A DNA stretch of 35,368 nucleotides from a virus (taxonomy: Duplodnaviria; Heunggongvirae; Uroviricota; Caudoviricetes), in the IMG/VR virus record IMGVR_UViG_2740892269_000014, one strand, 5' to 3'. Position numbers and translations under genes: made by a program. The notes under the pieces were generated by a model. The model had not been told where the DNA came from, did not search any database, and was given only the letters and a program-made list of their open reading frames with translations. Shown piece by piece: positions 2,854 through 33,084 of this stretch; within the stretch, counting starts at the first letter, position 1; every line of letters begins with the position of its first letter.

Positions 2854-3612
2854 TCACTTTCCTTTGATGCGAATGCCAGCGGCACGGGAATCATTCCATC
2901 GCTTTACTTCTTCACGAATTACGTCAATGCATTCTTTCGAATCCATTAGGTAATCTTCATCAAAAAGCCTTTCCTGTTCGTTTTCTATCGCAACAATGAT
3001 TGCTTCAACTAACTTTTGTGCCTGAGAACCACTTTCTAACTCTGCAATGCGCTTCTCTGCGGCTTCCAGCTTCTCGCGCATATCGTCAACGTACTCGACC
3101 AGAGATCCGCCAGCAGGAATTTCGCACTCCTCGACCAGTTGGAAGTAGATATCAGCTGCGGCCCGTGTGTTGCTATGCCTAGCGTCGCCCATCTCACCTT
3201 CACGAAGAGCATCGCGTTCGGCGGTAAGATTGGCTATTTTGCTGTCTTTGCCTTCAAGCTCAACGCGCAGCTTCCCTACCGTTAGCGCAATATCCTCGTT
3301 CTCCTGGTCACGGCGTTTGATGTATTGCTGGTTTCTTTCCCGTTCATCCAGCAGCGCCTGCACTACTTCAGGGTTGAAAGCTGCGATATAACGAGCGTTG
3401 TTCTCTGCGTTGTTCTGTCCATCAAAGCCGGTCCATTTGATAACGTCTTCACATCGTTTATCACCAGGTGTATGCACCGCATATGTACCAGTACCAGACG
3501 AAATAAATGCGACCCATTCACCCTGTGTTGCCAGTTGCGCCGCTTTACGCAGTGCCTGATAGTCAATCTTGCTCACTGGTTGCCTCCTTTGCGGATCTGC
3601 GCTGCGATGCAC
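2854..3612 (-). CDS. Ea22-like early protein (start uncertain)
   Basis: Coiled-coil-rich ORF with C-terminal motif DSKECIDVIREEVKRWNDS, recalled from lambdoid Ea22-like proteins; N-terminus may start at the internal VSKIDYQALRKAAQ. Confidence 0.45.
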   Translation of the reverse strand: MHRSADPQRRQPVSKIDYQALRKAAQLATQGEWVAFISSGTGTYAVHTPGDKRCEDVIKWTGFDGQNNAENNARYIAAFNPEVVQALLDERERNQQYIKRRDQENEDIALTVGKLRVELEGKDSKIANLTAERDALREGEMGDARHSNTRAAADIYFQLVEECEIPAGGSLVEYVDDMREKLEAAEKRIAELESGSQAQKLVEAIIVAIENEQERLFDEDYLMDSKECIDVIREEVKRWNDSRAAGIRIKGK

Positions 3613-5021: not shown

Positions 5022-5846
5022 TCAGGCGGTGAAAGTACCAATAAAGGTTTCTACTTTGCTGTCTTTGAATTTCTCAACAAGCAGATCACGAAATTCGTTA
5101 GCCATTTCTTCCTGCACCGCTTCCAGCTGAATAATGCGCAGAACCAGTACAGGACGATCGCCAGTGATAATGCTGAGGCGTAATTTAAATGGACGTTCTT
5201 CCAGACCTTCAAACGGAACGCATTTAAATTCAAATGCCACTGGCATAATATCTTTGGTCTTCGCTTCGACAGACTCCATCAGGGAGCGTTTGCCGCTGAA
5301 GTCATTATCTTCAAAATCAGCGGTCTGGTTTGCTTCAATCGTGATTTTACGGACAGCCGCAGCCGCTTTTGTTGCCTGAATAGCGTCACCATTAGCATCA
5401 AAGCCTACAAGGTAGTCGGCCCAGTCTTCAATCCATTCTGCCAGTGACTTCTGGGAGTTACGCTCGCCGTTAACAGACAACAGAGCAGAGAACGGTGCTG
5501 TCTTTTTCAGTTTGAGAGTGGCGGTGTTATCTGCGTGACCTGGTTCATCAATAGTACCCAGGTTAAGCACACTGACGGCACGCATATTATCAGCATCGAT
5601 AAAGCAGCGGGTGCCTTCATCTGCAAGATCTTTAGAATAACGGGTAAAGTCATCGATGCTGGCAGTGGAAAGCGCACCACGGAAACGGAAGCGATTTAAA
5701 TTAAATTTTTCCAGATCATGAATGCGGAAGTTCTCAGGCAATGCCACAGCATCGGCACCAATCTTACTGATAATTTCATTAACACCCTGAGCAGAAATAA
5801 GGGCATGGATTTGATTAATTGCGGTTGCGTCTAAGTTCTGAGACAT
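5022..5846 (-). CDS. YfdQ-like (DUF2303-type) protein of unknown function
   Basis: 274-aa ORF directly upstream of the HD phosphohydrolase, the same arrangement and size as the yfdQ-yfdR pair of E. coli CPS-53; assignment is from memory. Confidence 0.45.
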
Positions 5847-5911
5847 AATAAGTCCTCACTATATTAAGATATTCAGTGATGAGATAAATAATCAGTTAAT
5901 TAAGAACGATA

Positions 5912-6274
5912 TTAATGACCTGCTGCGCGGAGTTTTCCGTCAGGCTCACCGGCAAGAGTCAGTAATTGTCCCTGGTCTTCCTGCAGAATAGTCAGGCGAC
6001 CACCGCGATTGACATACATCGGCGTTTCGGTGGTGTCTTCTTCGGAAATTTTCCCGCGGTTAGTCGGGCGAACATATGAGAGTTTGTGTTTGATTTTCAC
6101 ACGGTTCTCATCAAACGGTTCGATTTCCAGGTTGAGCGAGACCTTACCTTTGGTTTTCGTGTTCATCACACCGGAAGCGACTTCACTGAGAACTGCGCCG
6201 ATTTTGGTTTCAAATACGCCGCCGTCCAGCTCCCCGATAAATGCCTGCACATCAGTACTGCGTTCGCTAGCCAT
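5912..6274 (-). CDS. hypothetical early protein (first gene of the leftward operon)
   Basis: Start at ATG 6272-6274 (MASERSTDVQ...) with GAGGAG RBS 6 nt upstream; 120 aa. Confidence 0.5.
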   Translation of the reverse strand: MASERSTDVQAFIGELDGGVFETKIGAVLSEVASGVMNTKTKGKVSLNLEIEPFDENRVKIKHKLSYVRPTNRGKISEEDTTETPMYVNRGGRLTILQEDQGQLLTLAGEPDGKLRAAGH

Positions 6275-6880
6275 TTGCTGCTCCTCATCATATCGACCCT
6301 GCAAGGTCGGTTGGTTTCTCCACAAAACAGAGAAGAACACCTGCGGTGCAGCCGCCCGGATGGATTGGGTTATGAGCCCGTCGTCCGGTGATGCTCTTCT
6401 CTGTTTTGTAAAAAGAGCGGTACCAGCCGGAAGCAAGTGTACAAACTGGTACCGCCAAAGCAGTGGCTGTTGTGGTGGGGTTGTCACTCAGGCGTATGGT
6501 CAACCTGACAATCCGGTGTCCTCAACGGGGAAAGAGTAACCCCGCCATACTTACCGCCGCGCCATTTCGCGGATTACCACAACGCTGAGAGCACTTAGCC
6601 AGTTACGGCACCACACTTTGTCGCGGTTCCATAAATGCCATCATCGTTGCACCCTGGTCTCTTCCCAGGCGTCAAACCGAATCGCCACGCTGGTTAGGCG
6701 TCTTATCAGCATCCTCATTGACTTGCACATTCCGGCTACCTGGTTTGTTTGCCCGAGCAAGGAGTGGATTGTCCCCTTTAACGTCCCCAGACCGCTAACG
6801 ACGCATGTGCCATACGCCGTGTTACAACCAAATTTTGTCAGGACCTTGTTTGTTGGTCTGGAAAGAAAGATAAAATGAAA

Positions 6881-7764: not shown

Positions 7765-8025
7765 ATGCAATCACCATTACGGAATGTGCGTAAGGCGCAC
7801 GGATTTACTTTGCAGCATGTTGCTGCGGGCGTTCAGGTCAATCCAGCGACGCTGAGTCGTATTGAAAGACTGGAACAAATTCCATCTATCGATCTTGCAG
7901 AACGTCTGGCCAATTTTTTTAAGGGTGAAATCAGCGAAATGCAGATTCTTTATCCGGCACGTTTTCAATCTAGCCAAAACCAGAATGGGTTTAAACCACA
8001 GGAACAGGAGGTAAGCCGTGGGTAA
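7765..8025 (+). CDS. Cro-like HTH regulator
   Basis: 86-aa ORF with an HTH-XRE motif (FTLQHVAAGVQVNPATLSRIER), first gene of the rightward operon. Confidence 0.65.
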   Translation: MQSPLRNVRKAHGFTLQHVAAGVQVNPATLSRIERLEQIPSIDLAERLANFFKGEISEMQILYPARFQSSQNQNGFKPQEQEVSRG

Positions 8026-8569
8026 GCATCATTGGAAAGTGGAAAAACAACCCGAGTGGTACGTGAAAGCTGTCAGAAAAACTATCGCGGCATTGCCTGG
8101 GGGTTACGCTGAAGCTGCTGACTGGCTGGATGTAACAGAGAACGCTTTATTCAACCGCCTTCGTGCAGATGGCGATCAGATTTTCCCGCTGGGATGGGCA
8201 ATGGTTTTACAGCGTGCTGGTGGCACTCACTTCATTGCTGACGCTGTGGCGCAGTCTGCAAATGGCGTCTTTGTGTCTCTTCCTGACGTCGAGGATGTGG
8301 ACAACGCCGATATCAACCAACGCCTGCTGGAAGTCATTGAACAGATCGGCAGTTATTCAAAACAGATTCGTTCAGCAATTGAAGACGGTGTAGTGGAACC
8401 GCATGAGAAGACAGCAATTAATGATGAATTGTATCTGTCAATTTCGAAGCTCCAGGAGCATGCGGCACTGGTCTACAAAATTTTCTGCGCTCCAGAAAAG
8501 AGTGACGCCCGCGAGTGTGCAGCTCCGGGCGTCGTGGCGTTTTGTGTCTGTGGAGAAACTAACGCATGA
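8018..8569 (+). CDS. CII-like / YdaT-family regulatory protein (putative)
   Basis: 183-aa ORF immediately after the cro-like gene with an 8-nt overlap; position and size fit CII functional analogues; identity is from memory. Confidence 0.4.
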   Translation: MGKHHWKVEKQPEWYVKAVRKTIAALPGGYAEAADWLDVTENALFNRLRADGDQIFPLGWAMVLQRAGGTHFIADAVAQSANGVFVSLPDVEDVDNADINQRLLEVIEQIGSYSKQIRSAIEDGVVEPHEKTAINDELYLSISKLQEHAALVYKIFCAPEKSDARECAAPGVVAFCVCGETNA

Positions 8570-8714
8570 ACAGTTTAACGGCAAATAACCGTTTGTCGCA
8601 ACAGCTGGTGGTCAGTGTCGCTGCACACCTGTTGTTACGGCATGAATGCAGATTACCAAATCACCTGGCTGTAAGTAACCACAGAGAACTTTACCTGACT
8701 GTGGGGGGCGAGTT

Positions 8715-8894
8715 GTGCAGGAACTTAACCGCTGGTTTCGTGACGGAAGAGGACTTTATGTTCATGTTATTCGTTGGGAGCCAGAAACACAGCGCGTTAT
8801 CTATCTTCGCAAAGACTACCCGCATGAGTGCTTTAGTCCTTTGTGGAAATTCAGGCGTGATTTTGTTGAGTGTGAAGGACCACCAGCACATTGA
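8715..8894 (+). CDS. possible small protein (59 aa, GTG start)
   Basis: Frame-0 ORF reading VQELNRWFRDGRGLYVHVIRWEPETQRVIYLRKDYPHECF...; G-rich stretch upstream; below the ORF-track cutoff; uncertain. Confidence 0.25.
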   Translation: MQELNRWFRDGRGLYVHVIRWEPETQRVIYLRKDYPHECFSPLWKFRRDFVECEGPPAH

Positions 8895-9168
8895 TTCTGC
8901 CATTCCGGGACGTTACACTGTTCAGGCACCTTATAAAGCGGGTGCCGGGATTGGCGTCCTGGAATTGCATACGGCGACAATTGGCGCGTTAGCGTCTTTT
9001 TTGTTGCTACAACTCAGCTATACCCAAATTATGGTGGGCTGGGTGGGGGCACCGAAAGGTGCGCCGGTTTCCGTATGCGCCGGTTACGCCAACCCTGCTC
9101 AGTTCACCACCAGCGAAATTGGCGTTTCCGGTGGTGGAAGTTATCCATTGCATACGGAGGCTGCCATC

Positions 9169-9714
9169 ATGGCTACGATCCCTGCCTTAGTTCAACCTGA
9201 ACTTTGCATTATTGCAGACAAAGTTGTTACTTCTTCTCTGGCTGTTGCTAGTTATTTCGGCAAACAACACAAAAACGTCATTCAAAAAATTGCGTCTCTT
9301 GAATGCTCTGCCGAATTTACTGAGCTGAATTTCCAGCTCAGTGAGTACATCGACGCATCAGGCCGCAAACTACCTTGCTATCAAATAACCCGCGACGGCT
9401 TTGCGTTTCTTGCTATGGGTTTCACGGGTAAACGTGCTGCCCAGTTCAAAGAGGCATACATCAATGCCTTTAACCAGATGGAGAAACAGCTTTCAAAGCC
9501 CGCTGTACCGAGCGACGTTGCACATAACGCCAGCGTTCTCTGTTCCTACATTTCATCAATTCATCAGGTCTGGCTGCAGCAGCTTTATCCTATGTTGGCA
9601 AAAGCCGAATCTCCGCTGGCTGTTAGCTTATATGACTATATTAATGATGCTTCGGCGCTGGCCTGCCTCATAAATTTGTCGCTGAACCCTTCAGAGGTAA
9701 GGGGGCGCAAATGA
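9169..9714 (+). CDS. Rha-family phage regulatory protein
   Basis: Start at MATIPALVQ with GGAGG RBS (9156-9160); Rha-like motif VVTSSLAVASYFGKQHKNVIQKI. The upstream part of ORF 8566..9714 is judged non-coding. Confidence 0.6.
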   Translation: MATIPALVQPELCIIADKVVTSSLAVASYFGKQHKNVIQKIASLECSAEFTELNFQLSEYIDASGRKLPCYQITRDGFAFLAMGFTGKRAAQFKEAYINAFNQMEKQLSKPAVPSDVAHNASVLCSYISSIHQVWLQQLYPMLAKAESPLAVSLYDYINDASALACLINLSLNPSEVRGRK

Positions 9715-9935
9715 TCCGGAATATTTTCAAACGTTTTACCAATCAGACTTTCCGTTGTCCTCGTCCGGGTCAGTGGTACACCACGCCTGCAGGGCATGTT
9801 CTACGTGTTAGCCTGGTTGACCGTGAATGTCAGAAGGTGATTTGTGAACCGCTGGGCCGTAATTACCGCGTCAGTATGCCGCTTATAGCCTTTCGCTCCG
9901 GAAAAAACATGAAGCATCTCGGAGGTGCAGCATGA
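9711..9935 (+). CDS. hypothetical small protein
   Basis: 74-aa ORF with ATGA overlaps at both ends. Confidence 0.4.
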   Translation: MIRNIFKRFTNQTFRCPRPGQWYTTPAGHVLRVSLVDRECQKVICEPLGRNYRVSMPLIAFRSGKNMKHLGGAA

Positions 9936-10750
9936 GTATGGAGCTGATGGTTAAAGCGATGAAAATTCGAGTGGGTAATCCATTGCGAAAACTGGTTCTG
10001 ATCAAGCTGGCTGATAATGCCAGCGATCAGGGTGAGTGCTGGCCCAGCTACCAGCATATTGCTGACCAGTGCGAGATTAGCAAACGTTCTGTGATGAATC
10101 ATATTGCGGCCCTCTGTGAGTCCGGGCTGGTAAAAAAAGTCACCCGGAAAGGTGAAAAAGGTAACTCAAGTAATATCTATCTTCTTCATCTTGATGGTGC
10201 AGGAGATTCACTAGGGGGTAGTGCAAATAATTCACTATCTGGTGCAGCAAATTCACCAGGTAGTGCAGGAGTTGCACCAGGGGGTAGTGCAGGAGATTCA
10301 CCCAGAACCAGTCACTCTTTTGAACCAGTCAAAGAACCAGTCAATGAACCAATAGCTGTTGGTGCATCAGTTGATGAGTCCGTGCGAGTTCGTTCAAACC
10401 GACCGGAATACTCTCCGGAGTTTGAGCAGGCATGGCTGGCATATCCCAAACGTGCTGGTGGCAATTCAAAATCTGCAGCCTTCAAAGCCTGGAAAGCCCG
10501 TTTGAATGAGGGAGTAAACCCCGAAACCATGCTGGAAGGTGTGAAACGCTACGCGGGCTGGGTATCTGCGATGGGTAACAGCGGCACACAATTTGTGAAA
10601 CAGGCTGTCACGTTCTTTGGTCCGGATCGTCATTTCGAAGAATCCTGGGAAGTTCCTGCGGTATCTGCAGCCAGACGTGAGGACCCGTACTTCAAAGCCA
10701 GTTACGACAACGTGGACTACAGCCAGATCCCGGCAGGATTCAGGGGGTGA
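9932..10750 (+). CDS. replication initiation protein (N-terminal winged HTH, C-terminal DnaT-like region) with internal origin repeats
   Basis: N-terminal motif LIKLADNASDQGECWPSYQHIADQCEISKRSVMNHIAAL; a low-complexity G/S/A linker is encoded by the iteron array; C-terminal motif AWLAYPKRAGGNSKSAAFKAWKARL. Confidence 0.55.
   Translation: MSMELMVKAMKIRVGNPLRKLVLIKLADNASDQGECWPSYQHIADQCEISKRSVMNHIAALCESGLVKKVTRKGEKGNSSNIYLLHLDGAGDSLGGSANNSLSGAANSPGSAGVAPGGSAGDSPRTSHSFEPVKEPVNEPIAVGASVDESVRVRSNRPEYSPEFEQAWLAYPKRAGGNSKSAAFKAWKARLNEGVNPETMLEGVKRYAGWVSAMGNSGTQFVKQAVTFFGPDRHFEESWEVPAVSAARREDPYFKASYDNVDYSQIPAGFRG
10196..10352 (+). repeat. candidate replication origin: five iterons plus three GAACCAGTCA repeats
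   Basis: Five about 19-bp direct repeats, GGT(A)GTGCAGGAGATTCAC-like, begin at 10196, 10217, 10241, 10259, 10283; GAACCAGTCA at 10305, 10322, 10334. Confidence 0.5.
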
Positions 10751-10752
10751 TC

Positions 10753-11241
10753 ATGAGTCTTTTGAATGAAGTTCAGAAATTCATTGAAGCCCATCCGGGG
10801 TGTACTTCCGGAGACATTGCGGATGCTTTTGCAGGTTACTCACGGCAGCGCGTTCTGCAGTCAGCAAGCAAGTTACGTCAGAGTGGGCGTGTGGCTCACC
10901 GTTGTGAAGGAGATACACGCAGACATTTCCCACGCCTGACTGAGAGAGCGCAGGAGCCGGAACCACAACCAGTTCGTGAAACCAAACCTGTGCGCAATTT
11001 CTATGTCGGCACTAACGATCCCCGGGTGATTTTGTGCCTGACCCGCCAGGCTGAAGAGCTGGAGTCCAGGGGGTTATACCGTCGTGCTGCAACGGTGTGG
11101 ATGGCGGCATTCCGAGAAAGCCACTCCCAGCCAGAACGAAACAATTTTCTGGCACGTCGTGAGCGGTGCTTACGGAAAAGCAGCAAGCGCGCTGCATCGG
11201 GTGAAGAGTGGTATCTGTCAGGGAATTACGTGGGGGCTTAA
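10753..11241 (+). CDS. PerC-like transcriptional regulator (putative)
   Basis: 163-aa ORF; C-terminal LESRGLYRRAATVWMAAF resembles the PerC-family motif; ATGA-type coupling upstream. Confidence 0.4.
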   Translation: MSLLNEVQKFIEAHPGCTSGDIADAFAGYSRQRVLQSASKLRQSGRVAHRCEGDTRRHFPRLTERAQEPEPQPVRETKPVRNFYVGTNDPRVILCLTRQAEELESRGLYRRAATVWMAAFRESHSQPERNNFLARRERCLRKSSKRAASGEEWYLSGNYVGA

Positions 11242-11894
11242 TGAGTAATAAATATTGCCGGGCGCTGGTGGAACTGCGGAACAAACCAGCCCATGAACTG
11301 AAGGAAGTGGGCGATCAGTGGCGCACGCCGGACAACATTTTCTGGGGAATTAACACCCTGTTTGGCCCGTTTGTTCTGGATCTGTTCACCGACGGTGATA
11401 ACGCCAAATGTACCGCGTATTACACGGCGGAAGACAACGCGCTGGCGCATGACTGGTCAGAACGTCTTGCGGAGCTTAAAGGTGCTGCCTTTGGTAATCC
11501 CCCATACAGCCGCGCCAGTCAGCATGAGGGGCAATACATCACCGGCATGCGTTACATCATGAAACATGCCAGTGCCATGCGTGATAAAGGCGGGCGCTAT
11601 GTTTTCCTGATCAAAGCTGCCACCAGCGAAGTGTGGTGGCCGGAAGATGCAGATCATATTGCTTTTATTCGCGGGCGTATTGGTTTTGAACTGCCTGCCT
11701 GGTTTATCCCGAAAGACGAGAAGCAGGTGCCGACAGGCGCTTTCTTCGCTGGTGCTATTGCTGTTTTCGACAAGACCTGGAAGGGACCGGCAATCAGCTA
11801 CATCGGGCGCGATGAACTTGAGGCATGTGGTGAGGCGTTTCTGGCGCAGGTTCGCCAGCAGGCGGAAAAACTGGTCAGGGAGATGGCGGCATGA
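11241..11894 (+). CDS. phage Dam-type DNA N6-adenine methyltransferase
   Basis: Catalytic NPPY motif (AAFGNPPYS); TAATG overlap with the upstream gene. Confidence 0.7.
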   Translation: MSNKYCRALVELRNKPAHELKEVGDQWRTPDNIFWGINTLFGPFVLDLFTDGDNAKCTAYYTAEDNALAHDWSERLAELKGAAFGNPPYSRASQHEGQYITGMRYIMKHASAMRDKGGRYVFLIKAATSEVWWPEDADHIAFIRGRIGFELPAWFIPKDEKQVPTGAFFAGAIAVFDKTWKGPAISYIGRDELEACGEAFLAQVRQQAEKLVREMAA

Positions 11895-12217
11895 CGACGT
11901 TAACTCAATGCCAGCAGCAGGTGCTGGATATGCTGATTTCTTACCAGAAAGAACGTGGCTTCCCGCCAACCAATCAGGAGGTGGCAACCATGCTGGGATA
12001 CCGTTCAGTGAATGCAGCGGTGGAGCATCTTCGCGCACTGGAGAAAAAAGGCGTCATCACGATAAAGCGTGGCGTGGCCCGGGGGATAACGCTTCATACT
12101 GCGATGAAGGACGACGACAGCGAGGCGGTCGGGATTATCCGCTCACTGCTTGCCGGTGAGGAAAACGCCAGGCTGCGTGCAACCCACTGGTTACATGAGA
12201 GGGGCCTGAAAGTATGA
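11891..12217 (+). CDS. LexA N-terminal DNA-binding-domain-like protein lacking the S24 peptidase domain
   Basis: 108-aa ORF; motif QEVATMLGYRSVNAAVEHLRALEKKGVI matches the LexA winged-helix domain; ATGA overlaps on both sides. Confidence 0.55.
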   Translation: MTTLTQCQQQVLDMLISYQKERGFPPTNQEVATMLGYRSVNAAVEHLRALEKKGVITIKRGVARGITLHTAMKDDDSEAVGIIRSLLAGEENARLRATHWLHERGLKV

Positions 12218-12630
12218 AGCTGATCTTGCCTTTCCCGCCCAGCGTGAACACGTACTGGCGACACCCCAACAAAGGGGCGTTTGCAGGTAAGAGCCTGATA
12301 AGCGCGGCGGGGCGCAAATTCCAGAGCGCGGCGTGTGCAGCAATAGTTGAGCAGTTACGTCGTCTGCCAAAACCAACGTCGGCACCTGCTTCAGTGGAGA
12401 TCGTGTTGTTTCCTCCGGATAACCGGATCCGCGATCTGGACAACTATAACAAGGCGCTGTTTGACGCCCTGACCCACGCGGGTGTGTGGGAAGACGACAG
12501 TCAGGTGAAAAGAATGCTGGTGGAGTGGGGACCGGTTATGCCGGAAGGGAAGGTCGAGATCACTATCAGTAAGTACGAGAAAACGGCGGGTGCAGCCGCC
12601 AGATCAAGAGGAGAAACGAAGTATGAATAA
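12214..12630 (+). CDS. rusA: RusA-family Holliday junction resolvase
   Basis: 138-aa ORF with RusA-like motifs (LPFPPSVNTYWRH; RDLDNYNKALFDALTHAGVWEDDSQV). Confidence 0.8.
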   Translation: MKLILPFPPSVNTYWRHPNKGAFAGKSLISAAGRKFQSAACAAIVEQLRRLPKPTSAPASVEIVLFPPDNRIRDLDNYNKALFDALTHAGVWEDDSQVKRMLVEWGPVMPEGKVEITISKYEKTAGAAARSRGETKYE

Positions 12631-13432
12631 TCTGATGGTCATTGATGGTATTGAAGTTCGTCGTGATGCTTATGGGCGTTACAGTCTGAACGATCTGCAT
12701 CGCGCAGCAGTAGCATCTGGTGCAAATGCCAGAACCAAGGAGCCAGGAAAGTTTCTTTCCAGCCAACAAACTGTTGAGCTTGTTCATGAATTGACCAACA
12801 CCCAGAATTTGGGTGTTGACCCGGTGAGTGTGATTCATGGGGGAAATGAACGGGGAACGTATGTCTGCAAGGAACTGGTGTATGCCTATGCAATGTGGAT
12901 CAGCCCGTCATTCCATCTGAAGGTGATCCGTACTTTCGACATGGTAACCAGCGCACCGGAAAAATTATCCGGACAGGCTGCTGACAAGATGCAGGCTGGT
13001 GTGATTCTGCTGGACTTTATGCGCCGGGAATTAAACCTGTCTAACTCTTCAGTGCTTGGTGCCTGTCAGAAACTCCAGGAGGCTGTTGGCTTACCGAATC
13101 TGGCACCGCGCTATGCCATTGATGCTCCTGCTGACGCGCCTGATGGCTCAAGTCGCCCCACGCTGTCGCTGAGTGCACTGCTGAAACAGTATGGTATCCG
13201 CCTGACGGCTAATCAGGCATATCACCAGATGGTGAAGCTAGGGATCGTTGAACAACGCGAACGATACAGCCGTACCGCGATTAACAACATCAAAAAATTC
13301 TGGTCGCTGACGGCGAAAGGCTGCATGTTCGGCAAGAACATCACCAGTCCCGCAAATCCGCGCGAGACGCAGCCGCATTTCTTCGAATCCCGATTCCCTG
13401 AGCTGTTAAAGTTGCTCGATACCGTTCATTGA
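12623..13432 (+). CDS. KilA-N domain protein
   Basis: Start at MNNLMVIDGIEVRRDAYGRYSLNDLHRAA (KilA-N-like) with GGAG RBS; overlaps the RusA stop. Confidence 0.55.
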   Translation: MNNLMVIDGIEVRRDAYGRYSLNDLHRAAVASGANARTKEPGKFLSSQQTVELVHELTNTQNLGVDPVSVIHGGNERGTYVCKELVYAYAMWISPSFHLKVIRTFDMVTSAPEKLSGQAADKMQAGVILLDFMRRELNLSNSSVLGACQKLQEAVGLPNLAPRYAIDAPADAPDGSSRPTLSLSALLKQYGIRLTANQAYHQMVKLGIVEQRERYSRTAINNIKKFWSLTAKGCMFGKNITSPANPRETQPHFFESRFPELLKLLDTVH

Positions 13433-13433
13433 G

Positions 13434-14429
13434 GTGACCGTGAGAGCACTACTGACCCCTGAAATTGCCCCGCGTATGGGGATCGTATTGTTCAGGCCAG
13501 GTTCAGAGCTGATGCCCCTGTTTATGCAGGGGCGTGTCCTGCTGGAGCCTGAGCCGGAACGTTATTCATCTTTCGCCAGTGGTGCCGTTCCGGCGGCATC
13601 ACAACCGCTGGCGGATGATCCTGCCGTTCGGGCCGTGTTCCGCAATGAGGCAGTGATCCGTCGTGCTGGTGGCGTGGAATGTCTTGAAAGCTGGTTACTT
13701 CGTGAAAAAGGCTGCCAGTGGCCTCATTCCGACTGGCACAGCGAGAACATGACAACAATGCGACACGCGCCGGGCGCAATCCGTCTGTGCTGGCACTGCG
13801 ATAACCAGCTGCGCGATCAGTTCACGGAACGGCTGGAATCAATGGCAACGGATAACTGTGCCCGCTGGGTGTTGTCTGTTGTGCGTCGGGATCTCGGTTT
13901 TGATGATAGTCACGTTGTGACAATGCCGGAACTGTGCTGGTGGCTGATTCGGAATGACCTGGCGGATGCCTTACCGGAAAGTGCAGCCCGTAAGGCACTG
14001 AGATTACCGAAGCCTGTTGTGCCGTCTGTCACCCGGGAAAGTGACCTTGTGCCTTCGGTTCCTGCCACCAGCATCATCCAGGATAAGGCGAAAAAGGTGC
14101 TGGCGCTGAAAGTGGATCCGGAGTCGCCGGAGTCTTTTATGTTACGCCCAAAACGTCGCCGCTGGGTTAATGAAAAGTACACGCGCTGGGTTAAGACACA
14201 GCCGTGTGCATGTTGTGGAAAGCCCGCTGATGATCCCCACCACCTGATAGGTCACGGTCAGGGTGGAATGGGAACAAAAGCGCATGACCTTTTTGTGTTG
14301 CCTTTGTGCAGAAAGCATCACGACGAGCTGCATGCGGATACCGTGGCATTTGAAGAGAAGTATGGCTCCCAGCTGGAGCTGATATTTCGTTTTATCGATC
14401 GTGCGCTGGCAATTGGCGTGCTGGCCTGA
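13434..14429 (+). CDS. DUF968 protein (Cys/His-rich, HNH-like C-terminus)
   Basis: C-terminal motif [43 protein letters not shown]; GTG start (13434 or 13440). Confidence 0.6.
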
Positions 14430-14446
14430 TTTTGTGGAGAAAGTTG

Positions 14447-14812
14447 ATGCGTGATATTCAAATGGTTCTTGAACGTTGGGGGGCATGGGTGGCAAATAAT
14501 CACGAGGATGTCACTTGGTCGTCTATTGCTGCAGGATTTAAAGGACTAATCCCTTCAAAAGTAAAATCCCGCCCGCAATGTTGTGACGATGACGCGATGA
14601 TCATTTGTGGATGCATGGCTCGCCTGAAAAAGAACAACAGCGATTTGCACGATTTATTAGTGGATTATTATGTAGGTGGTATGACGTTTATGGCGCTTGC
14701 CCGTAAACATGGGCGTTCTGATTGCTGGGTTGGGCGTTTATTGCAAAAGGCTGAAGGTGTAGTTGATGGCATGTTAATGATGTTAGAAATTGAGCTAGAG
14801 ATGGATCGTTAG
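14447..14812 (+). CDS. Q: late-gene antiterminator Q-like protein
   Basis: Start [22 protein letters not shown] with GGAG RBS; Cys-rich motif [18 protein letters not shown] typical of Q-family antiterminators; sits immediately upstream of the late region. Confidence 0.6.
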
Positions 14813-14854
14813 AAGACCTCTTATTGAGAGGGTAATTGAATCAGTTTAATGTGT

Positions 14855-14885
14855 GGGGAGTCGATTTATTCTCCCCATTTTATTT
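14855..14885 (+). terminator. hairpin plus T-rich tract downstream of Q
   Basis: ggggag-N10-ctcccc stem followed by ATTTTATTT. Confidence 0.4.
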
Positions 14886-14896
14886 AATTAATTTAC

Positions 14897-15343
14897 TTAA
14901 GGTTTTAATTCATCAAGACGTTGTTGGATAGTGTTTTTGCTTGCGTTGTCTGTTATAGCCATTTGTTGTACTTGCCCCATTGCCATTTGAGTTTCCATCC
15001 ACATATCGGCCCACACTTTTGTATCGTTATTAACTTGAGCGATAGTAAATCTGACTTTTGATACCGGGGTTGTTGAATAGGCATTGCCGATTAACATTTG
15101 TCCAAAAACAGCAGACCCGCCTTCCAGTTCTTTACCACATATAACACTGCTGTTATCCGCGTTGTAAATTATCAACCCTCTACTATTGCAGTAATTCACA
15201 AGGGCATCTTTGACTTTATCTTTTGTCGTATTTTGATAAACCCCCTCAGGTTTTCCTGATTGAGTTTTCTTTATCAATGGTACGGAAGAAGTACAACCTG
15301 AAATGATAGTTGCGCTAAGTAATAGTACAGTCATTTTATTCAT
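14897..15343 (-). CDS. lipoprotein (moron), unknown function
   Basis: 148-aa ORF with a signal peptide and lipobox (LLLSATIISGC); AT-rich; oriented antisense to the flanking phage operons. Confidence 0.6.
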   Translation of the reverse strand: MNKMTVLLLSATIISGCTSSVPLIKKTQSGKPEGVYQNTTKDKVKDALVNYCNSRGLIIYNADNSSVICGKELEGGSAVFGQMLIGNAYSTTPVSKVRFTIAQVNNDTKVWADMWMETQMAMGQVQQMAITDNASKNTIQQRLDELKP

Positions 15344-15408
15344 GTTTCTTATCCATTGTTAAGGGCATACCTACACAATTATTTTTATTGGAGATGAATA
15401 ATCAACCG

Positions 15409-15492
15409 TTTACAATCGTAAAAAATCAAATATGCTGTTAAGAGTGGTTACTTCGCCACACAACTTAAACCCGCCGCTGAGCGGTTTTTTTG
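15409..15492 (+). promoter_or_regulatory. candidate late promoter with a short terminated leader (pR'/tR'-like)
   Basis: -35 TTTACA (15409-15414), 16-nt spacer, -10 TATGCT (15431-15436); weak hairpin plus T7 tract at 15468-15491. Confidence 0.3.
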
Positions 15493-15613
15493 TACCTGTA
15501 AACTTGGTGCAGTACAGTAAACACGCTGGTGGTCGTGAATACTGACTTTTTATCTTGCTGGCTTTTTAGACAAGAGTTATTGGTATGTCATGTTAACCAG
15601 AAGGGAAAAAGAC

Positions 15614-15696
15614 ATGCTAAAACAGCAAGATATGACAGAAACCGCCGCCGCAGTCCTTCATTTCTTACCTGCTGACAAGTGGGTAACGCCACGCAT
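15614..15696 (+). CDS. hypothetical late protein, 5' fragment truncated by an N run
   Basis: ATG at 15614 with AAGGG RBS; the ORF (MLKQQDMTETAAAVLHFLPADKWVTPR) runs into the N block. Confidence 0.3.
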
Positions 15697-15963
15697 NNNN
15701 NNNNNNNNNNNNNNNNNNNNNNNNNNNNNNNNNNNNNNNNNNNNNNNNNNNNNNNNNNNNNNNNNNNNNNNNNNNNNNNNNNNNNNNNNNNNNNNNNNNN
15801 NNNNNNNNNNNNNNNNNNNNNNNNNNNNNNNNNNNNNNNNNNNNNNNNNNNNNNNNNNNNNNNNNNNNNNNNNNNNNNNNNNNNNNNNNNNNNNNNNNNN
15901 NNNNNNNNNNNNNNNNNNNNNNNNNNNNNNNNNNNNNNNNNNNNNNNNNNNNNNNNNNNNNNN
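15697..15963. other. N run (assembly gap or masked sequence), 267 nt
   Basis: Contiguous n characters. Confidence 1.
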
Positions 15964-15989: not shown

Positions 15990-17042
15990 ATGAAAAATAC
16001 TGTAAAAATAAACAGTGTTGATTTAATCAACGCTGATTGCCTGCATTTTATTCAGTCCCTGCCTGATGATTCCATTGACCTGATTGTTACCGATCCGCCT
16101 TACTTCAAGGTGAAACCCAACGGTTGGGACAATCAGTGGAAAGGGGACGAAGATTACCTTAAGTGGCTGGACCACTGTCTGGCCCAGTTCTGGCGGGTGT
16201 TAAAACCTGCCGGAAGCCTTTACCTGTTCTGTGGGCATCGTCTGGCATCTGATATTGAGATCATGATGCGTGAACGTTTCAACGTGCTTAACCATATCAT
16301 CTGGGCGAAGCCGTCCGGACGTTGGAATGGGTGTAATAAAGAAAGTCTGCGCGCATATTTTCCTGCCACAGAGCGCGTTCTGTTTGCTGAACATTACCAG
16401 GGGCCATATCGCGGCAAAAGTGACGGCTATGCGGCAAAAGAAAGGGAACTCAAACAGCACATAATGGCACCGCTGATATCGTATTTCAGGGATGCTCGTG
16501 CCGAACTGGGTATAACGGCAAAACAAATTGCCGAAGCCACAGGTAAGAAAAATATGGTTTCCCACTGGTTTGGTGCCAGTCAGTGGCAGTTGCCGAATGA
16601 GGCTGACTATCGGAAGTTACAGGCACTGTTTTCCCGTATAGCGGCAGAGAAGTTTCAGGAACAACAACTGGAACAACCACACCACCAGCTGGTGGCATCT
16701 TATGATTCACTGAATCGCAAATATTCTGAATTGCTGGATGAGTTTAAATCTCTCCGGCGCTATTTCTCCGTATCAGTCTCCGTGCCTTATACCGATGTCT
16801 GGATGCATAAACCCGTTCAGTTCTACCCGGGTAAACATCCGTGTGAGAAACCTGCGGATATGCTCCGGCAAATAATCAATGCCAGTAGTCGACCTGGTGA
16901 TCTGGTTGCTGATTTTTTTATGGGATCCGGTTCCACAATAAAAGCAGCAATGGCGCTGGGGCGTCGGGCCTTAGGTGTTGAGCTTGAGTCAGAGCGGTTT
17001 AACCAGACAGTGAAAGAGATAAACGAGCTGGTGGGGAAATAA
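15990..17042 (+). CDS. orphan DNA methyltransferase (N6-adenine/N4-cytosine class, beta architecture)
   Basis: N-terminal DPPY catalytic motif (IVTDPPYF) and C-terminal AdoMet-binding motif (FMGSGST); no adjacent restriction endonuclease. Confidence 0.7.
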   Translation: MKNTVKINSVDLINADCLHFIQSLPDDSIDLIVTDPPYFKVKPNGWDNQWKGDEDYLKWLDHCLAQFWRVLKPAGSLYLFCGHRLASDIEIMMRERFNVLNHIIWAKPSGRWNGCNKESLRAYFPATERVLFAEHYQGPYRGKSDGYAAKERELKQHIMAPLISYFRDARAELGITAKQIAEATGKKNMVSHWFGASQWQLPNEADYRKLQALFSRIAAEKFQEQQLEQPHHQLVASYDSLNRKYSELLDEFKSLRRYFSVSVSVPYTDVWMHKPVQFYPGKHPCEKPADMLRQIINASSRPGDLVADFFMGSGSTIKAAMALGRRALGVELESERFNQTVKEINELVGK

Positions 17043-17046
17043 TCTG

Positions 17047-17073
17047 GTGGCCACGTAGGTGGCCTTTTTATTT
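17047..17073 (+). terminator. intrinsic terminator between the methyltransferase and the holin
   Basis: ggccac-gtag-gtggcc hairpin followed by TTTTTATTT; duplicated at 18003-18029. Confidence 0.5.
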
Positions 17074-17108: not shown

Positions 17109-17324
17109 ATGAAATCCATGGATAAGTTAACAACGGGTGTCGCCTATGGCACCTCAGCAGGTAGTGCCGGGTACTGGTTTTTACAGTTGCTCGATAAAGT
17201 CACGCCCTCACAGTGGGCGGCAATAGGTGTGCTGGGTAGTCTGGTATTTGGCTTGCTGACGTATCTGACAAACCTTTATTTCAAGATTAAAGAAGATAAG
17301 CGTAAGGCTGCGAGAGGTGAATAA
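17109..17324 (+). CDS. class II holin, phage 21 S-type pinholin with dual-start motif (copy 1)
   Basis: 71 aa, MKSMDKL... with Met1 and Met4 starts; closely matches the phage 21 S holin as recalled; ATGA overlap with the endolysin. Confidence 0.8.
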
Positions 17325-17461: not shown

Positions 17462-17727
17462 NNNNNNNNNNNNNNNNNNNNNNNNNNNNNNNNNNNNNNN
17501 NNNNNNNNNNNNNNNNNNNNNNNNNNNNNNNNNNNNNNNNNNNNNNNNNNNNNNNNNNNNNNNNNNNNNNNNNNNNNNNNNNNNNNNNNNNNNNNNNNNN
17601 NNNNNNNNNNNNNNNNNNNNNNNNNNNNNNNNNNNNNNNNNNNNNNNNNNNNNNNNNNNNNNNNNNNNNNNNNNNNNNNNNNNNNNNNNNNNNNNNNNNN
17701 NNNNNNNNNNNNNNNNNNNNNNNNNNN
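17462..17727. other. N run (assembly gap), 266 nt
   Basis: Contiguous n characters flanked by duplicated sequence. Confidence 1.
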
Positions 17728-18417
17728 ATCAGTCTCCGTGCCTTATACCGATGTCTGGATGCATAAACCCGTTCAGTTCTACCCGGGTAAACATCCGTGT
17801 GAGAAACCTGCGGATATGCTCCGGCAAATAATCAATGCCAGTAGTCGACCTGGTGATCTGGTTGCTGATTTTTTTATGGGATCCGGTTCCACAATAAAAG
17901 CAGCAATGGCGCTGGGGCGTCGGGCCTTAGGTGTTGAGCTTGAGTCAGAGCGGTTTAACCAGACAGTGAAAGAGATAAACGAGCTGGTGGGGAAATAATC
18001 TGGTGGCCACGTAGGTGGCCTTTTTATTTCCATTACACAGCACCCGCATCTGCGAGGTGGGGTTATGAAATCCATGGATAAGTTAACAACGGGTGTCGCC
18101 TATGGCACCTCAGCAGGTAGTGCCGGGTACTGGTTTTTACAGTTGCTCGATAAAGTCACGCCCTCACAGTGGGCGGCAATAGGTGTGCTGGGTAGTCTGG
18201 TATTTGGCTTGCTGACGTATCTGACAAACCTTTATTTCAAGATTAAAGAAGATAAGCGTAAGGCTGCGAGAGGTGAATAATGTCGCCATCATTACGCAAG
18301 GCTGTTGCTGCTGCTATTGGTGGTGGGGCTGTTGCCATAGCGTCTGTGCTCATCACTGGTCCGAGTGGTGACGATGGCCTGGAAGGTGTCAGCTACATAC
18401 CATACAAAGATATCGTT
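17728..18417 (+). repeat. exact 690-bp duplicate of 16772-17461 (methyltransferase 3' end, terminator, holin, endolysin 5' end)
   Basis: Feature starts are offset by exactly 956 bp (17109 vs 18065; 17324 vs 18280), and the bases just before the gap match those at 18408-18417. Confidence 0.9.
18065..18280 (+). CDS. class II holin, phage 21 S-type pinholin (copy 2)
   Basis: Same sequence as 17109-17324. Confidence 0.8.
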
Positions 18418-24408: not shown

Positions 24409-26392
24409 CCGCAGTACACCGACGACCAGTCCGAAGAATAATTCCTGGTTCAGGATGCAGGCTGGTCACCAGAGTGACGCGGATATTTATATTTATGACG
24501 AGATTGGTTTCTGGGGTGTTACAGCGAAGCAGTTTATCAGTGATCTGAATGCACTGGGCGATATCACCCACATTAATCTCCATATCAATTCACCGGGTGG
24601 CGATGTCTTTGAAGGCATCGCCATTTTTAATGCGCTGAAAACACATGGTGCGTCCATTACCGTTTATGTCGACGGTGTGGCGGCATCAATGGCGTCGGTC
24701 ATTGCGATGGTGGGAAACCCGGTCATTATGCCGGAAANNNNNNNNNNNNNNNNNNNNNNNNNNNNNNNNNNNNNNNNNNNNNNNNNNNNNNNNNNNNNNN
24801 NNNNNNNNNNNNNNNNNNNNNNNNNNNNNNNNNNNNNNNNNNNNNNNNNNNNNNNNNNNNNNNNNNNNNNNNNNNNNNNNNNNNNNNNNNNNNNNNNNNN
24901 NNNNNNNNNNNNNNNNNNNNNNNNNNNNNNNNNNNNNNNNNNNNNNNNNNNNNNNNNNNNNNNNNNNNNNAAACGTACAGAGGAATTTAAAAAGATGCCG
25001 GAATCCATTCGAAACATGATTACTCCGCCACGCAACAGTGCTCCACGCGTACAGGATAATGAACCTGCAGCTTCCCGGACGCCAGTGCAGGCAGCAGCAC
25101 CCGTGGTGGATGAAAACAGTATCCGTGCGCAGGTACTGGCAGAGCAAAAAGCGCGTGTAAACGGTATTAATGATCTGTTTGCCATGTTTGGCGGGCGTTA
25201 TCAGACGCTGCAGGCTCAGTGTCTTGCCGATCCTGAATGTTCGCTGGAGCAGGCCCGCGAAAAGCTGTTGAACGAGATGGGGCGCGAGTCCACGCCATCC
25301 AATAAAAATACCCCGGCTCATATTTATGCCGGTAACGGTAATTTTGTGGGGGACGGGATCCGCCAGGCGCTGATGGCGCGTGCCGGATTTGAAAAAACCG
25401 AACGTGATAATGTCTACAACGGGATGACCCTGCGTGAATATGCCCGTATGTCACTGACTGAACGGGGTATTGGGGTTTCCAGTTATAACCCGATGCAGAT
25501 GGTCGGTGCGGCGTTCACACACAGTACGTCTGACTTCGGTAATATTCTGCTGGATGTTGCGAACAAAGCCATTCTGCAGGGCTGGGAAGATGCCCCTGAA
25601 ACCTATGAACAGTGGACGCGGAAAGGTCAGTTGTCTGATTTTAAAATTGCCCATCGTGTGGGTATGGGGGGCTTCAGTGCTCTGCGTCAGGTGCGTGAAG
25701 GGGCGGAATATAAATACGTCACCACCGGAGATAAACAGGCCACTATTGCACTGGCGACCTATGGCGAGCTGTTCAGTATCACCCGTCAGGCCATTATCAA
25801 TGATGATCTGAATATGCTGACCGATGTCCCGATGAAACTGGGCCGTGCGGCGAAATCCACCATTGCCGATCTGGTTTATGCCATTCTGACGTCTAACCCG
25901 AAAATCTCCACAGATAATGTAAGTCTGTTCGATAAAGCGAAACATGCAAACGTACTGGAGAGCGCTGCAATGGACGTGGCATCGCTGGATAAAGCCCGCC
26001 AGTTGATGCGCGTTCAGAAAGAGGGTGAGCGTCATCTGAATATTCGTCCTGCGTTCGTACTGGTACCGACGGCGATGGAGTCTGTTGCTAACCAGGTCAT
26101 TCGCTCCTCAAGTGTCAAGGGGGCTGACATTAACGCCGGTATTATTAACCCGGTGAAAGATTTTGCGACCGTTATTGCAGAGCCTCGTCTTGATGATAAC
26201 AGCCAGACCACCTTCTACCTGGCTGCGTCCAAAGGCTCCGATACGATTGAAGTGGCTTATCTCAACGGTGTGGATACGCCATATATTGATCAGATGGAGG
26301 GCTTCAGTGTGGATGGCGTGACAACGAAAGTGCGTATTGACGCCGGTGTCGCGCCAGTTGATCACCGCGGTCTGGTGAAATGTACGGCGTAA
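24386..26392 (+). CDS. tripartite capsid precursor (ClpP-like prohead protease, scaffold, major capsid protein), interrupted by an N run
   Basis: GTG start at 24386 with AAGGAGG RBS (24374-24380); ClpP-like N-terminal domain (HINLHINSPGGDVFEGIAIFNALK...ASMASVIAM); capsid-sized C-terminal domain; frame continuity across the N block is not meaningful. Confidence 0.6.
   Translation: MPQRNDSSRSTPTTSPKNNSWFRMQAGHQSDADIYIYDEIGFWGVTAKQFISDLNALGDITHINLHINSPGGDVFEGIAIFNALKTHGASITVYVDGVAASMASVIAMVGNPVIMPEXXXXXXXXXXXXXXXXXXXXXXXXXXXXXXXXXXXXXXXXXXXXXXXXXXXXXXXXXXXXXXXXXXXXXXXXXXXXXXKRTEEFKKMPESIRNMITPPRNSAPRVQDNEPAASRTPVQAAAPVVDENSIRAQVLAEQKARVNGINDLFAMFGGRYQTLQAQCLADPECSLEQAREKLLNEMGRESTPSNKNTPAHIYAGNGNFVGDGIRQALMARAGFEKTERDNVYNGMTLREYARMSLTERGIGVSSYNPMQMVGAAFTHSTSDFGNILLDVANKAILQGWEDAPETYEQWTRKGQLSDFKIAHRVGMGGFSALRQVREGAEYKYVTTGDKQATIALATYGELFSITRQAIINDDLNMLTDVPMKLGRAAKSTIADLVYAILTSNPKISTDNVSLFDKAKHANVLESAAMDVASLDKARQLMRVQKEGERHLNIRPAFVLVPTAMESVANQVIRSSSVKGADINAGIINPVKDFATVIAEPRLDDNSQTTFYLAASKGSDTIEVAYLNGVDTPYIDQMEGFSVDGVTTKVRIDAGVAPVDHRGLVKCTA
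24738..24970. other. N run (gap or masked sequence), 233 nt, inside the capsid gene
   Basis: Contiguous n characters. Confidence 1.
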
Positions 26393-32638: not shown

Positions 32639-33084
32639 TGGAGACGTTTCACTNNNNNNNNNNNNNNNNNNNNNNNNNNNNNNNNNNNNNNNNNNNNNNN
32701 NNNNNNNNNNNNNNNNNNNNNNNNNNNNNNNNNNNNNNNNNNNNNNNNNNNNNNNNNNNNNNNNNNNNNNNNNNNNNNNNNNNNNNNNNNNNNNNNNNNN
32801 NNNNNNNNNNNNNNNNNNNNNNNNNNNNNNNNNNNNNNNNNNNNNNNNNNNNNNNNNNNNNNNNNNNNNNNNNNNNNNNNNNNNNNNNNNNNNNNNNNNN
32901 NNNNNNNNNNCATTTACGACAAACCACCCTGATCGGTTTCCAGTCATAAGGTGGCGTCCGCGCATTTCAGTGGACGCCACCTTATGACTGGAAACCGATC
33001 AGGGTGGTTTGTCGTAAATGGTCGGCAAGCGTGGGGGCGCTGTGGGTAACCATAACGGCAGATTTTGAACAGGTCGTGGCATAG
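32639..33084 (+). CDS. M: minor tail protein M-like, interrupted by an N run and a palindromic artefact
   Basis: ATG immediately after the H stop (METF...); the 3' part (from 32959) reads RAFQWTPPYDWKPIRVVCRKWS...FEQVVA*, matching the lambda gpM C-terminus. Confidence 0.6.
32654..32910. other. N run (assembly gap), 257 nt
   Basis: Contiguous n characters. Confidence 1.
32911..33019. repeat. perfect 49-bp inverted repeat (palindrome) with 11-nt spacer next to the N run; probable fold-back artefact
   Basis: Arm 32911-32959 is the exact reverse complement of arm 32971-33019; the right arm is genuine M coding sequence, while the left arm puts a stop (TAA 32947-32949) in the M frame. Confidence 0.85.

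Follow-up and report, generated by a model that had tools for sequence, protein, structure and literature searches.

The 35,368-nucleotide stretch of viral DNA analysed here (the window; IMG/VR record IMGVR_UViG_2740892269_000014, Duplodnaviria; Heunggongvirae; Uroviricota; Caudoviricetes) carries at positions 14,813 to 15,408 an AT-rich interval that encodes, antisense to the genes around it, a lipoprotein of 148 amino acids (aa). The open reading frame (ORF) of this lipoprotein is a genuine gene under purifying selection. We read the interval, together with the mechanism proposed below, as a moron, an accessory cassette complete in itself, that occupies the hypervariable slot separating the antiterminator gene Q from the Q-dependent late promoter in an E. 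coli lambdoid prophage of the DLP12/PhiR40_1 type, a reading that we put forward tentatively and to which we would give slightly less than an even chance. The kind of element is familiar, being an antisense envelope-protein moron in the region from Q to the lysis genes, in a slot long known from nmpC; morons encoding envelope proteins are a classic route by which prophages change their host (Bor, Lom, NmpC/Lc, Cor, gp15). What is new is a widespread and conserved family, without name, model or literature, that has been captured at several phage positions, most often in the tail-tip operon. The features of the interval and its flanks are as follows.

14897..15343, minus strand: lipoprotein coding sequence of 148 aa, with an ATG start, a signal peptide (residues 1-16), a lipobox and a mature domain of 131 aa
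14840..15415, no strand assigned: approximate extent of the inserted cassette, from alignments with prophages bearing other cargo and from partial matches that start at 15417-15436
15378..15405, minus strand: sigma-70 promoter-like site for the lipoprotein gene, TTGATT-16 nt-AATAAT (consensus scan, 9/12 matches; motif level only)
14817..14831: hairpin 1, CCTCTC/GAGAGG, in the spacer between Q and the lipoprotein gene, followed by TCTTCT on the minus strand; candidate terminator of the lipoprotein transcript (RNA fold)
14853..14878: hairpin 2, an 8-bp GC-rich stem with a 10-nt loop, followed by ATTTTATTT on the plus strand (terminator scan and fold)
14432..14812, plus strand: antiterminator gene Q, the left flank, outside the cassette (PF06530 Phage_antitermQ, E = 2e-51)
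15409..15436, plus strand: putative late promoter pR', TTTACA-16 nt-TATGCT, the right flank (scan and conservation)
15473..15492, plus strand: tR'-like intrinsic terminator, a putative target of Q, GCCGCTGAGCGG then T7 (terminator scan; unchanged across four cargo types)

Purifying selection on the gene is evident from its substitution pattern. Between the Salmonella and Jejubacter homologues the proportion of nonsynonymous differences (pN) was 0.08 and that of synonymous differences (pS) 0.61, with substitution rates dN and dS of 0.088 and 1.27, respectively (dN/dS of about 0.07). When the window gene was compared with either of these two homologues, pN was 0.18-0.20 and pS 0.79-0.85. Two plus-strand ORFs within the interval (46 and 53 aa) were disregarded because the substitution pattern supports the minus-strand frame. 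The calculated chance of a 148-codon open frame at 38% GC is about 4e-5 per start. An identical gene is present in the isolated phages PhiR40_1 and PhiR55_1, to both of which the window is 99.4% identical over 14400-15700. The interval with both its flanks was found in 185 of 5,426 complete E. coli genomes (about 3%), always with the same flanks, and the E. coli carriers include isolates from human, poultry and livestock. In RefSeq the E. coli protein is entered as WP_001038608.1 under the name 'hypothetical protein'. Its sole PHROG match is phrog_3152, for which PHROGs annotates no function; this is a full-length hidden Markov model match of residues 1-148 to profile positions 1-148 of 148 (E = 1.3e-104).

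The N-terminus of the product, MNKMTVLLLSATIISGC, has a basic, lysine-containing n-region followed by a hydrophobic core and then the lipobox I-S-G-C. Up to the predicted lipidation residue the signal peptide reads MNKMTVLLLSATIISG, and with the cysteine that follows it fits the lipobox pattern [LVI][ASTVI][GAS]C. Direct reading of the sequence placed the codon of this cysteine, Cys17, at 15293-15295 (IISG ahead of C17), and the residue is invariant both in 46 diverse relatives and in an alignment of closer relatives. The residue at position +2 after Cys17 is Thr, with no Asp, the Lol-avoidance signal. The mature product has a mass of 14.5 kDa. The GC content is 38.0% in the lipoprotein gene, 36.6% in the interval 14813-15408 and 36.3% in the cassette, compared with 44.1% in Q, 55.9% in the DUF968 gene to the left of Q and 50.8% in the whole window; at third codon positions it is 0.33 in the lipoprotein gene versus 0.57 in the DUF968 gene. 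All neighbouring genes are on the plus strand, from 8018 to 14812 and from 15590 onward. The initial annotation had described a 148-aa lipoprotein ORF with an ISGC lipobox, antisense to its flanking genes in an AT-rich stretch, and the sequence agrees with it on each of these points.

Comparison of related prophages shows that the space between Q and a conserved 85-nt element on its right is a hypervariable cargo hotspot, of which the lipoprotein cassette is one allele. Q and the right-hand element enclose other cargo in L005, L006, L007, L031, L033 and DLP12. The same cassette sits in the same slot of the E. coli prophage L037, which has different lysis, terminase and head modules. The cargoes found in place of the lipoprotein gene are listed here.

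L006 and DLP12 of K-12, antisense: an NmpC-type porin
L005 (E. coli Res13-Lact-PER04-33), 1-2378, antisense: a protein of >790 aa with metallophosphoesterase and NACHT/STAND NTPase domains
L007, 958-2419, antisense: a gene pair of 182 and 308 aa, with no Pfam or PADLOC match
L031, 1063-3452, antisense: a gene pair, a 408-aa protein and a 'nucleoid-associated protein'
L033, 2012-3400, antisense: a gene pair, a 147-aa protein and a DUF6731 protein
L032 and L034, sense: single hypothetical genes

The slot protein of L005 matches the PADLOC candidate system PDC-S60 (E = 1.5e-84), and the two-gene cargoes of L007, L031 and L033 could be undescribed defence systems. The closest parallel in anatomy is nmpC of the cryptic prophage DLP12, which has exactly the same slot and orientation as the lipoprotein gene: it is antisense, with a QuuD-type Q on one side and, on the other, the 85-nt element ahead of the lysis genes. 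It is envelope-protein cargo too, but encodes a 16-strand porin with no sequence or fold relation to the lipoprotein. We take the lc porin gene of phage PA-2 to be a second classical comparator for the slot.

We use the term moron in the Juhala/Hendrix sense as quoted in PMC3594210. The moron character proposed in the initial annotation is supported: the cassette is an insert between flanks that are filled differently in other prophages, its gene deviates in GC (38% vs 44-56% in the neighbours), and its flanks have, at motif level, promoter-like and terminator-like sites. The same annotation equated the position with that where Stx phages carry stx, and this is incorrect in detail. In the Stx2e prophage L032, Q is followed by the element, then a small ORF, the methyltransferase, tRNAs and stx2eAB, all on the sense strand, so that stx2eAB (5499-6734) lies downstream of the element, where Q would drive it, whereas the lipoprotein gene lies upstream of it and antisense, in the position of the nmpC slot of DLP12. 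With the 85-nt element as an anchor, the interval from Q to pR' of DLP12-type prophages could be mined for accessory and defence genes.

The 85-nt element (15405-15492) consists of a promoter-like site, an invariant transcribed leader and a GC hairpin with a T-run. In DLP12 it sits between nmpC and essD (locus L030, about 6180-6280), and in the Stx2e prophage at 3501-3595. In about 1,000 further E. coli genomes the similarity is confined to the right end of the interval, beginning at window positions 15417-15436. Similarity to prophages with other cargo begins at the putative pR', which stands back to back with the promoter-like site of the lipoprotein gene. From its position and conservation we infer that the element is a Q-dependent late promoter with a promoter-proximal terminator. 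The initial annotation had located the gene between Q and the late promoter region, and comparative conservation, which marks that region, bears it out. The upstream half of the element varies with the Q type, at least two sequence versions of it being present; the Q protein of the window is 85% identical to QuuD of DLP12. Late transcription from the putative pR' would head away from the lipoprotein gene, and rightward early transcription would meet two hairpins after Q.

Both hairpins lie within the 84-nt spacer that separates the convergent Q and lipoprotein genes, a region with a fold z-score of about -2.3 on either strand (14808-14900). Hairpin 2 is a candidate terminator that may shield the cassette from rightward early transcription. 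In the 5' flank of the gene (15344-15440) RNA folding detected no significant structure (z = -0.44), and the next hairpin to the right (15473-15485) is part of the conserved late-promoter element, beyond the interval. The proposal that the gene has its own hairpin boundaries was therefore upheld at the 3' end and failed at the 5' flank. The -10 hexamer of the promoter-like site ends 35 nt upstream of the ATG, and a Shine-Dalgarno-like GGA triplet is found 8 nt ahead of it. The promoter and terminator calls are consensus matches and stand as predictions at motif level. Rfam and tRNA scans gave no RNA element above threshold in the region, the best match being STnc130 with 26 bits against a gathering score of 55.

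The lipoprotein belongs to a large family. An exhaustive profile search collected 823 representatives of 50% identity clusters at E <= 1e-3, of which 408 reached E <= 1e-10, ranging from Enterobacterales to Sphingomonadales. Members are typically about 145-160 aa long, and most of the relatives listed have a recognisable lipobox; where it was detected the +2 position is usually taken by Ala, Ser, Val or Thr and in no case by Asp. Among the 46 diverse members the near-invariant positions are, besides the lipobox Cys, a T-x-S-G-x-P-E string about 10 residues past it, Cys52 and Cys69 (both >=90% conserved), G123, N137 and L143. In closer relatives the motifs IGNAYSTTP and KVWADMWxETQMxxGQ are invariant. 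Some distant members (P0106, P0117, P0188 and others) have C-terminal PDZ, SHOCT or YfiO/BamD-like TPR domains, and Pfam scans of ten longer distant relatives matched only these fused PDZ, TPR/YfiO and SHOCT parts and never the shared domain.

The initial annotation did not recognise the family, and the database searches agree. Pfam (E <= 0.01) and NCBIfam scans of the lipoprotein gave no match, PADLOC-DB 2.0 component models gave none at E <= 1, and single-sequence and profile searches of the PDB returned signal-peptide or chance matches only. No source examined provides an informative protein name. The UniProt name 'VirB7' carried by one homologue was rejected since it reflects the lipoprotein signal only, the PDB profile match to TrwH spanning residues 1-24. 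No publication dealing with the protein emerged from literature searches that used its accession, the name of the phage, the PHROG id and topic terms, and PhiR40_1 is not mentioned in PMC12315714. The family is thus catalogued (as phrog_3152 and as a RefSeq 'hypothetical protein') and otherwise undescribed, and it is unusually conserved for a phage accessory protein.

An AlphaFold2 model built on a 20-sequence alignment was confident, with a mean predicted local distance difference test score (pLDDT) of 85.8 and a predicted template modelling score (pTM) of 0.76. The mature part is predicted to form a single helix-grip/TBP-like domain with the topology beta-alpha-beta-beta-alpha-beta-beta-beta-alpha. 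Foldseek searches of the PDB ranked DUF4468 and BamC-N at the top (E of about 2e-3, TM 0.3-0.54), and a library of predicted viral structures gave no match at E <= 0.001 and low TM scores. Because the lipoprotein shares only 6-12% identity with BamC-N, Flpp3/DUF3568, DUF4468 and eukaryotic KA1, we regard the resemblance as one of fold, from which no function is predicted.

Homologues with 50-72% identity occur in Salmonella, Jejubacter, Citrobacter, Enterobacter, Phytobacter, Xenorhabdus and Morganella, and the overall range in other genera is 31-85%. Most of the homologues outside E. coli are sense-strand inserts of the tail-tip operon, either between the tape measure gene and M or between K and I. 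The contexts given here for distant relatives are a sample, and ORF calls in high-GC loci are rough.

Salmonella (72% identical) and Morganella, sense strand: at the junction of K with I among the tail-tip genes
Citrobacter, two metagenomic prophages, an Enterobacteriaceae metagenome-assembled genome, Haemophilus and Photorhabdus: at the junction of the tape measure gene with M
Proteus: behind the tape measure gene and a further two distal tail genes, ahead of a DUF6950/NlpC-P60 gene
Phytobacter: in a nin-like early region, between RecA-like and LexA-like genes
Enterobacter: in a P1-like darA/ddrB region
Kosakonia: carried by a conjugative plasmid
Erythrobacter: a relative with a fused PDZ domain, carried by a megaplasmid (L035, 4872-5789)

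These locations show that the family moves among phages and plasmids, as expected for a moron. The Citrobacter copy (L021) has a promoter-like site directly upstream and a strong intrinsic terminator directly downstream, signals that are more distinct than those of the window cassette, and the Salmonella copy is located in a GC trough. Distant members with 31-36% identity in Halomonas and Sphingosinicella have terminase, tail-fibre-like or tape-measure genes a few kb away. Homologues between the tape measure gene and M are sometimes accompanied by other inserts, such as Rha-like and Bro-N genes. In a Haemophilus paraphrohaemolyticus prophage (L014, 5224-7402) the gap between tape measure and gpM genes holds a Rha/ORF11CD3 protein, the lipoprotein homologue and a Bro-N protein in tandem, and these three inserts suggest that the junction is itself a moron hotspot. 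The Erythrobacter PDZ fusion adjoins ParB-like and strawberry-notch-like helicase genes.

Phage-encoded lipoproteins of superinfection exclusion are known. Llp of T5, Cor of phi80/N15/T1 and Rtp45 of Rtp are proteins of about 6-8 kDa in the inner leaflet of the outer membrane that act on an envelope protein from the periplasmic side, with exclusion of phages by Llp and Rtp45, and are encoded beside the receptor-binding gene (PMC12685063). Relatives of the window lipoprotein resemble them in being located near tail-tip genes; the window gene itself is more than 15 kb away from the tail tip genes. The known proteins differ in being smaller and receptor-specific, whereas the window protein has a mature mass about twice theirs and a predicted helix-grip fold, and no sequence match to Llp, Cor or Rtp45 was found in Pfam and PHROG scans or in the viral structure library. 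To compare the lipoproteins with the receptor-binding protein J, seven carrier phages were aligned. Their lipoproteins are 57-85% identical and the N-terminal parts of their J proteins 34-75% identical, whereas the J C-termini are 21-52% identical or unalignable. Since the lipoprotein does not co-vary with the J C-termini, we conclude that it is not a co-evolving mask of the carrier's receptor; the mosaic context of L037 likewise speaks against masking of the kind known from Llp, Cor and Rtp45, with the receptor of the carrier as its object. A conserved target is more likely than that receptor.

In the mechanism that we propose the lipoprotein gene would be transcribed leftward from its own sigma-70 promoter, and the transcript would end at the hairpins before Q. 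Because the promoter-like site faces away from pR', transcription would be independent of Q and possible in the lysogen. The precursor would be exported by Sec and lipidated at Cys17, and delivery to the outer membrane by Lol is expected because the +2 residue is Thr and not Asp. The 131-aa mature part would fold into the helix-grip domain, tethered by the conserved T-x-S-G-x-P-E string and probably stabilised by a Cys52-Cys69 disulfide. This domain may bind a conserved envelope component, not the receptor used by the carrier phage. The effect would be superinfection exclusion or defence in the lysogen at the level of the envelope, with adsorption, periplasmic genome delivery or other envelope-targeting agents being hindered; this is a guess by analogy, possible in our judgement and short of probable. 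For the versions in tail operons, exclusion would act late in lytic growth as well. The functions suggested in the initial annotation, namely lysogenic conversion, superinfection exclusion and envelope defence, are all plausible.

Exclusion or defence is favoured because a receptor-type porin and a defence candidate are among the other cargoes of the slot, because relatives have been captured repeatedly beside tape-measure and tail-tip genes, because the lipoproteins Llp and Rtp45 exclude phages, and because HK97 gp15, the founding moron, provides a precedent for a tail-operon moron that acts in exclusion. The gene for gp15 adjoins that of the tape measure and is equipped with expression signals of its own; its product is made in the prophage state and prevents genome entry (PMC3594210). 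Like the relatives between the tape measure gene and M it is an insert at this place, but the gp15 protein belongs to the YebO family, is small and resides in the inner membrane; it is no lipoprotein and has no sequence relation to the window protein.

Several considerations weigh against exclusion or defence. Expression in the lysogen and the exclusion phenotype are guesses from consensus motifs and analogy. Searches of Pfam, PHROG, PADLOC and viral structures detected no similarity to any known defence protein or characterised exclusion lipoprotein. The known exclusion lipoproteins are small, receptor-specific and encoded beside the receptor-binding gene, whereas the window protein shows no co-variation. 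Conservation across genera would suit a housekeeping-like envelope interaction or a host-fitness role equally well. Finally, guilt by association from the slot is weak, as morons of many functions occupy such slots.

A further possibility, which we consider rather unlikely, is that the members of this large family, carried by phages and plasmids, are outer-membrane lipoproteins that exclude phages broadly, whatever their receptor, at the periplasmic stage of entry, and do so by acting on some machine or polymer of the envelope that is itself conserved (BAM, Lpt, Tol-Pal and peptidoglycan are examples). If true, such exclusion would be a mechanism distinct from that of Llp, Cor and Rtp45 and would explain the repeated capture of the gene beside tape-measure and tail-tip genes. 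Should the lipoprotein prove to be an exclusion or defence factor, it would represent a structurally new class of outer-membrane anti-phage lipoprotein, with relevance for host-range prediction and phage therapy. PhiR40_1, an isolated phage with an identical gene, provides an experimental system at hand.

The best-surviving alternative to exclusion or defence is a host-fitness or virulence factor like Bor, Iss or TraT, which would be expressed in the lysogen and make the host more resistant to stresses such as serum complement, bile or antimicrobial peptides while leaving phages unaffected. The anatomy fits such a factor, as the serum-resistance proteins lambda Bor and BorD of DLP12 (PF06291) are likewise small outer-membrane lipoproteins encoded antisense near the lysis region, Bor is a moron expressed in lysogens (PMC3594210), and borD of DLP12 lies only a few kb downstream of the slot. 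Bor and BorD differ in occupying another slot, after Rz, and in their length of 97 aa versus 148 aa. The isolation of carriers from human, poultry and livestock and a conservation that is independent of the receptor-binding domain would both suit a host-directed role. Homology to Bor/Iss was nevertheless rejected, because Pfam gave no match and the hhalign alignment with BorD is limited to the signal peptide (residues 1-31). The family also has members in Halomonas, Sphingosinicella, Erythrobacter and the insect-associated Photorhabdus and Xenorhabdus, where serum resistance is irrelevant, and we consider a host-fitness factor of this type unlikely.

A benefit during lytic growth, in which the protein would coat the outer membrane or debris to spare progeny, as in the second role of T5 Llp, or would modulate disruption of the outer membrane at lysis, appears distinctly unlikely. 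It would agree with the sense orientation of most homologues outside E. coli within the late tail-tip operon, and hence with their co-expression with tail genes, and a debris-masking role has been described for exclusion lipoproteins (PMC12685063). The window gene, however, is antisense and upstream of pR', out of reach of late transcription, members occur on plasmids too, and debris masking needs receptor specificity, which the lack of co-variation with the J C-termini speaks against.

The many invariant polar residues (N87, Y89, S90, D113, E117, Q119, N133, N137 and Q140) suggest a defined binding surface. Together with the predicted periplasmic location of the lipoprotein and its mobility as a single gene, this would suit an orphan immunity or inhibitor protein that counters an enzyme or toxin active in the periplasm, for instance an amidase or lipase effector of type VI secretion, a colicin, a lysozyme or a tail NlpC/P60 hydrolase. 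The gene adjoins gpK (JAB and NlpC/P60 domains) in Salmonella and Morganella and a DUF6950/NlpC-P60 protein in Proteus, yet the adjacency to K is inconstant, other loci placing the gene after the tape measure. As a cognate toxin gene was seen beside the lipoprotein gene in none of the loci examined, and no known immunity family was matched, we regard such a role as improbable. A BamC mimic that docks on BamD/BAM and alters outer-membrane protein biogenesis, and so receptor display, is very improbable: in one distant relative, P0106, a YfiO/BamD-like TPR domain is fused to the protein, and the window lipoprotein and BamC both have a K-x-x-S-G-x-E-like string past the lipobox, but hhalign gave a probability of 4.8% against BamC alone and 5.7% against a 15-sequence BamC alignment with only the signal peptide aligning, the Pfam scan gave no match to PF06804, the helix-grip fold is very common with KA1, SRPBCC and DUF4468 scoring equal or better, and the lipoprotein has one domain versus BamC's two and a long N-terminal region.

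The genes around the interval are arranged as follows. On the left a KilA-N protein gene (12590-13432) and a DUF968/HNH protein gene (13434-14429) precede Q and the antisense lipoprotein gene; on the right the 85-nt element is followed by a small ORF, a DNA methyltransferase gene (15990-17042), a P21-type holin gene and a lysozyme gene. The window contains four N runs of 233-267 nt each (15697-15963, 17462-17727, 24738-24970 and 32654-32910), the first of which breaks the small ORF after the late-promoter element. A perfect tandem duplication (16772-17071 and 17728-18027, with a unit of about 956 bp and an N run at the junction) spans the 3' part of the methyltransferase gene, the holin gene and the 5' end of the lysozyme gene, so that the holin ORF appears at both 17109-17324 and 18065-18280. 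Because the records of PhiR40_1 and E. coli WP4-S17, which are near-identical to the window, lack this duplication, it is probably an artefact of assembly or masking. The N runs and the duplication leave the analysed interval unaffected.

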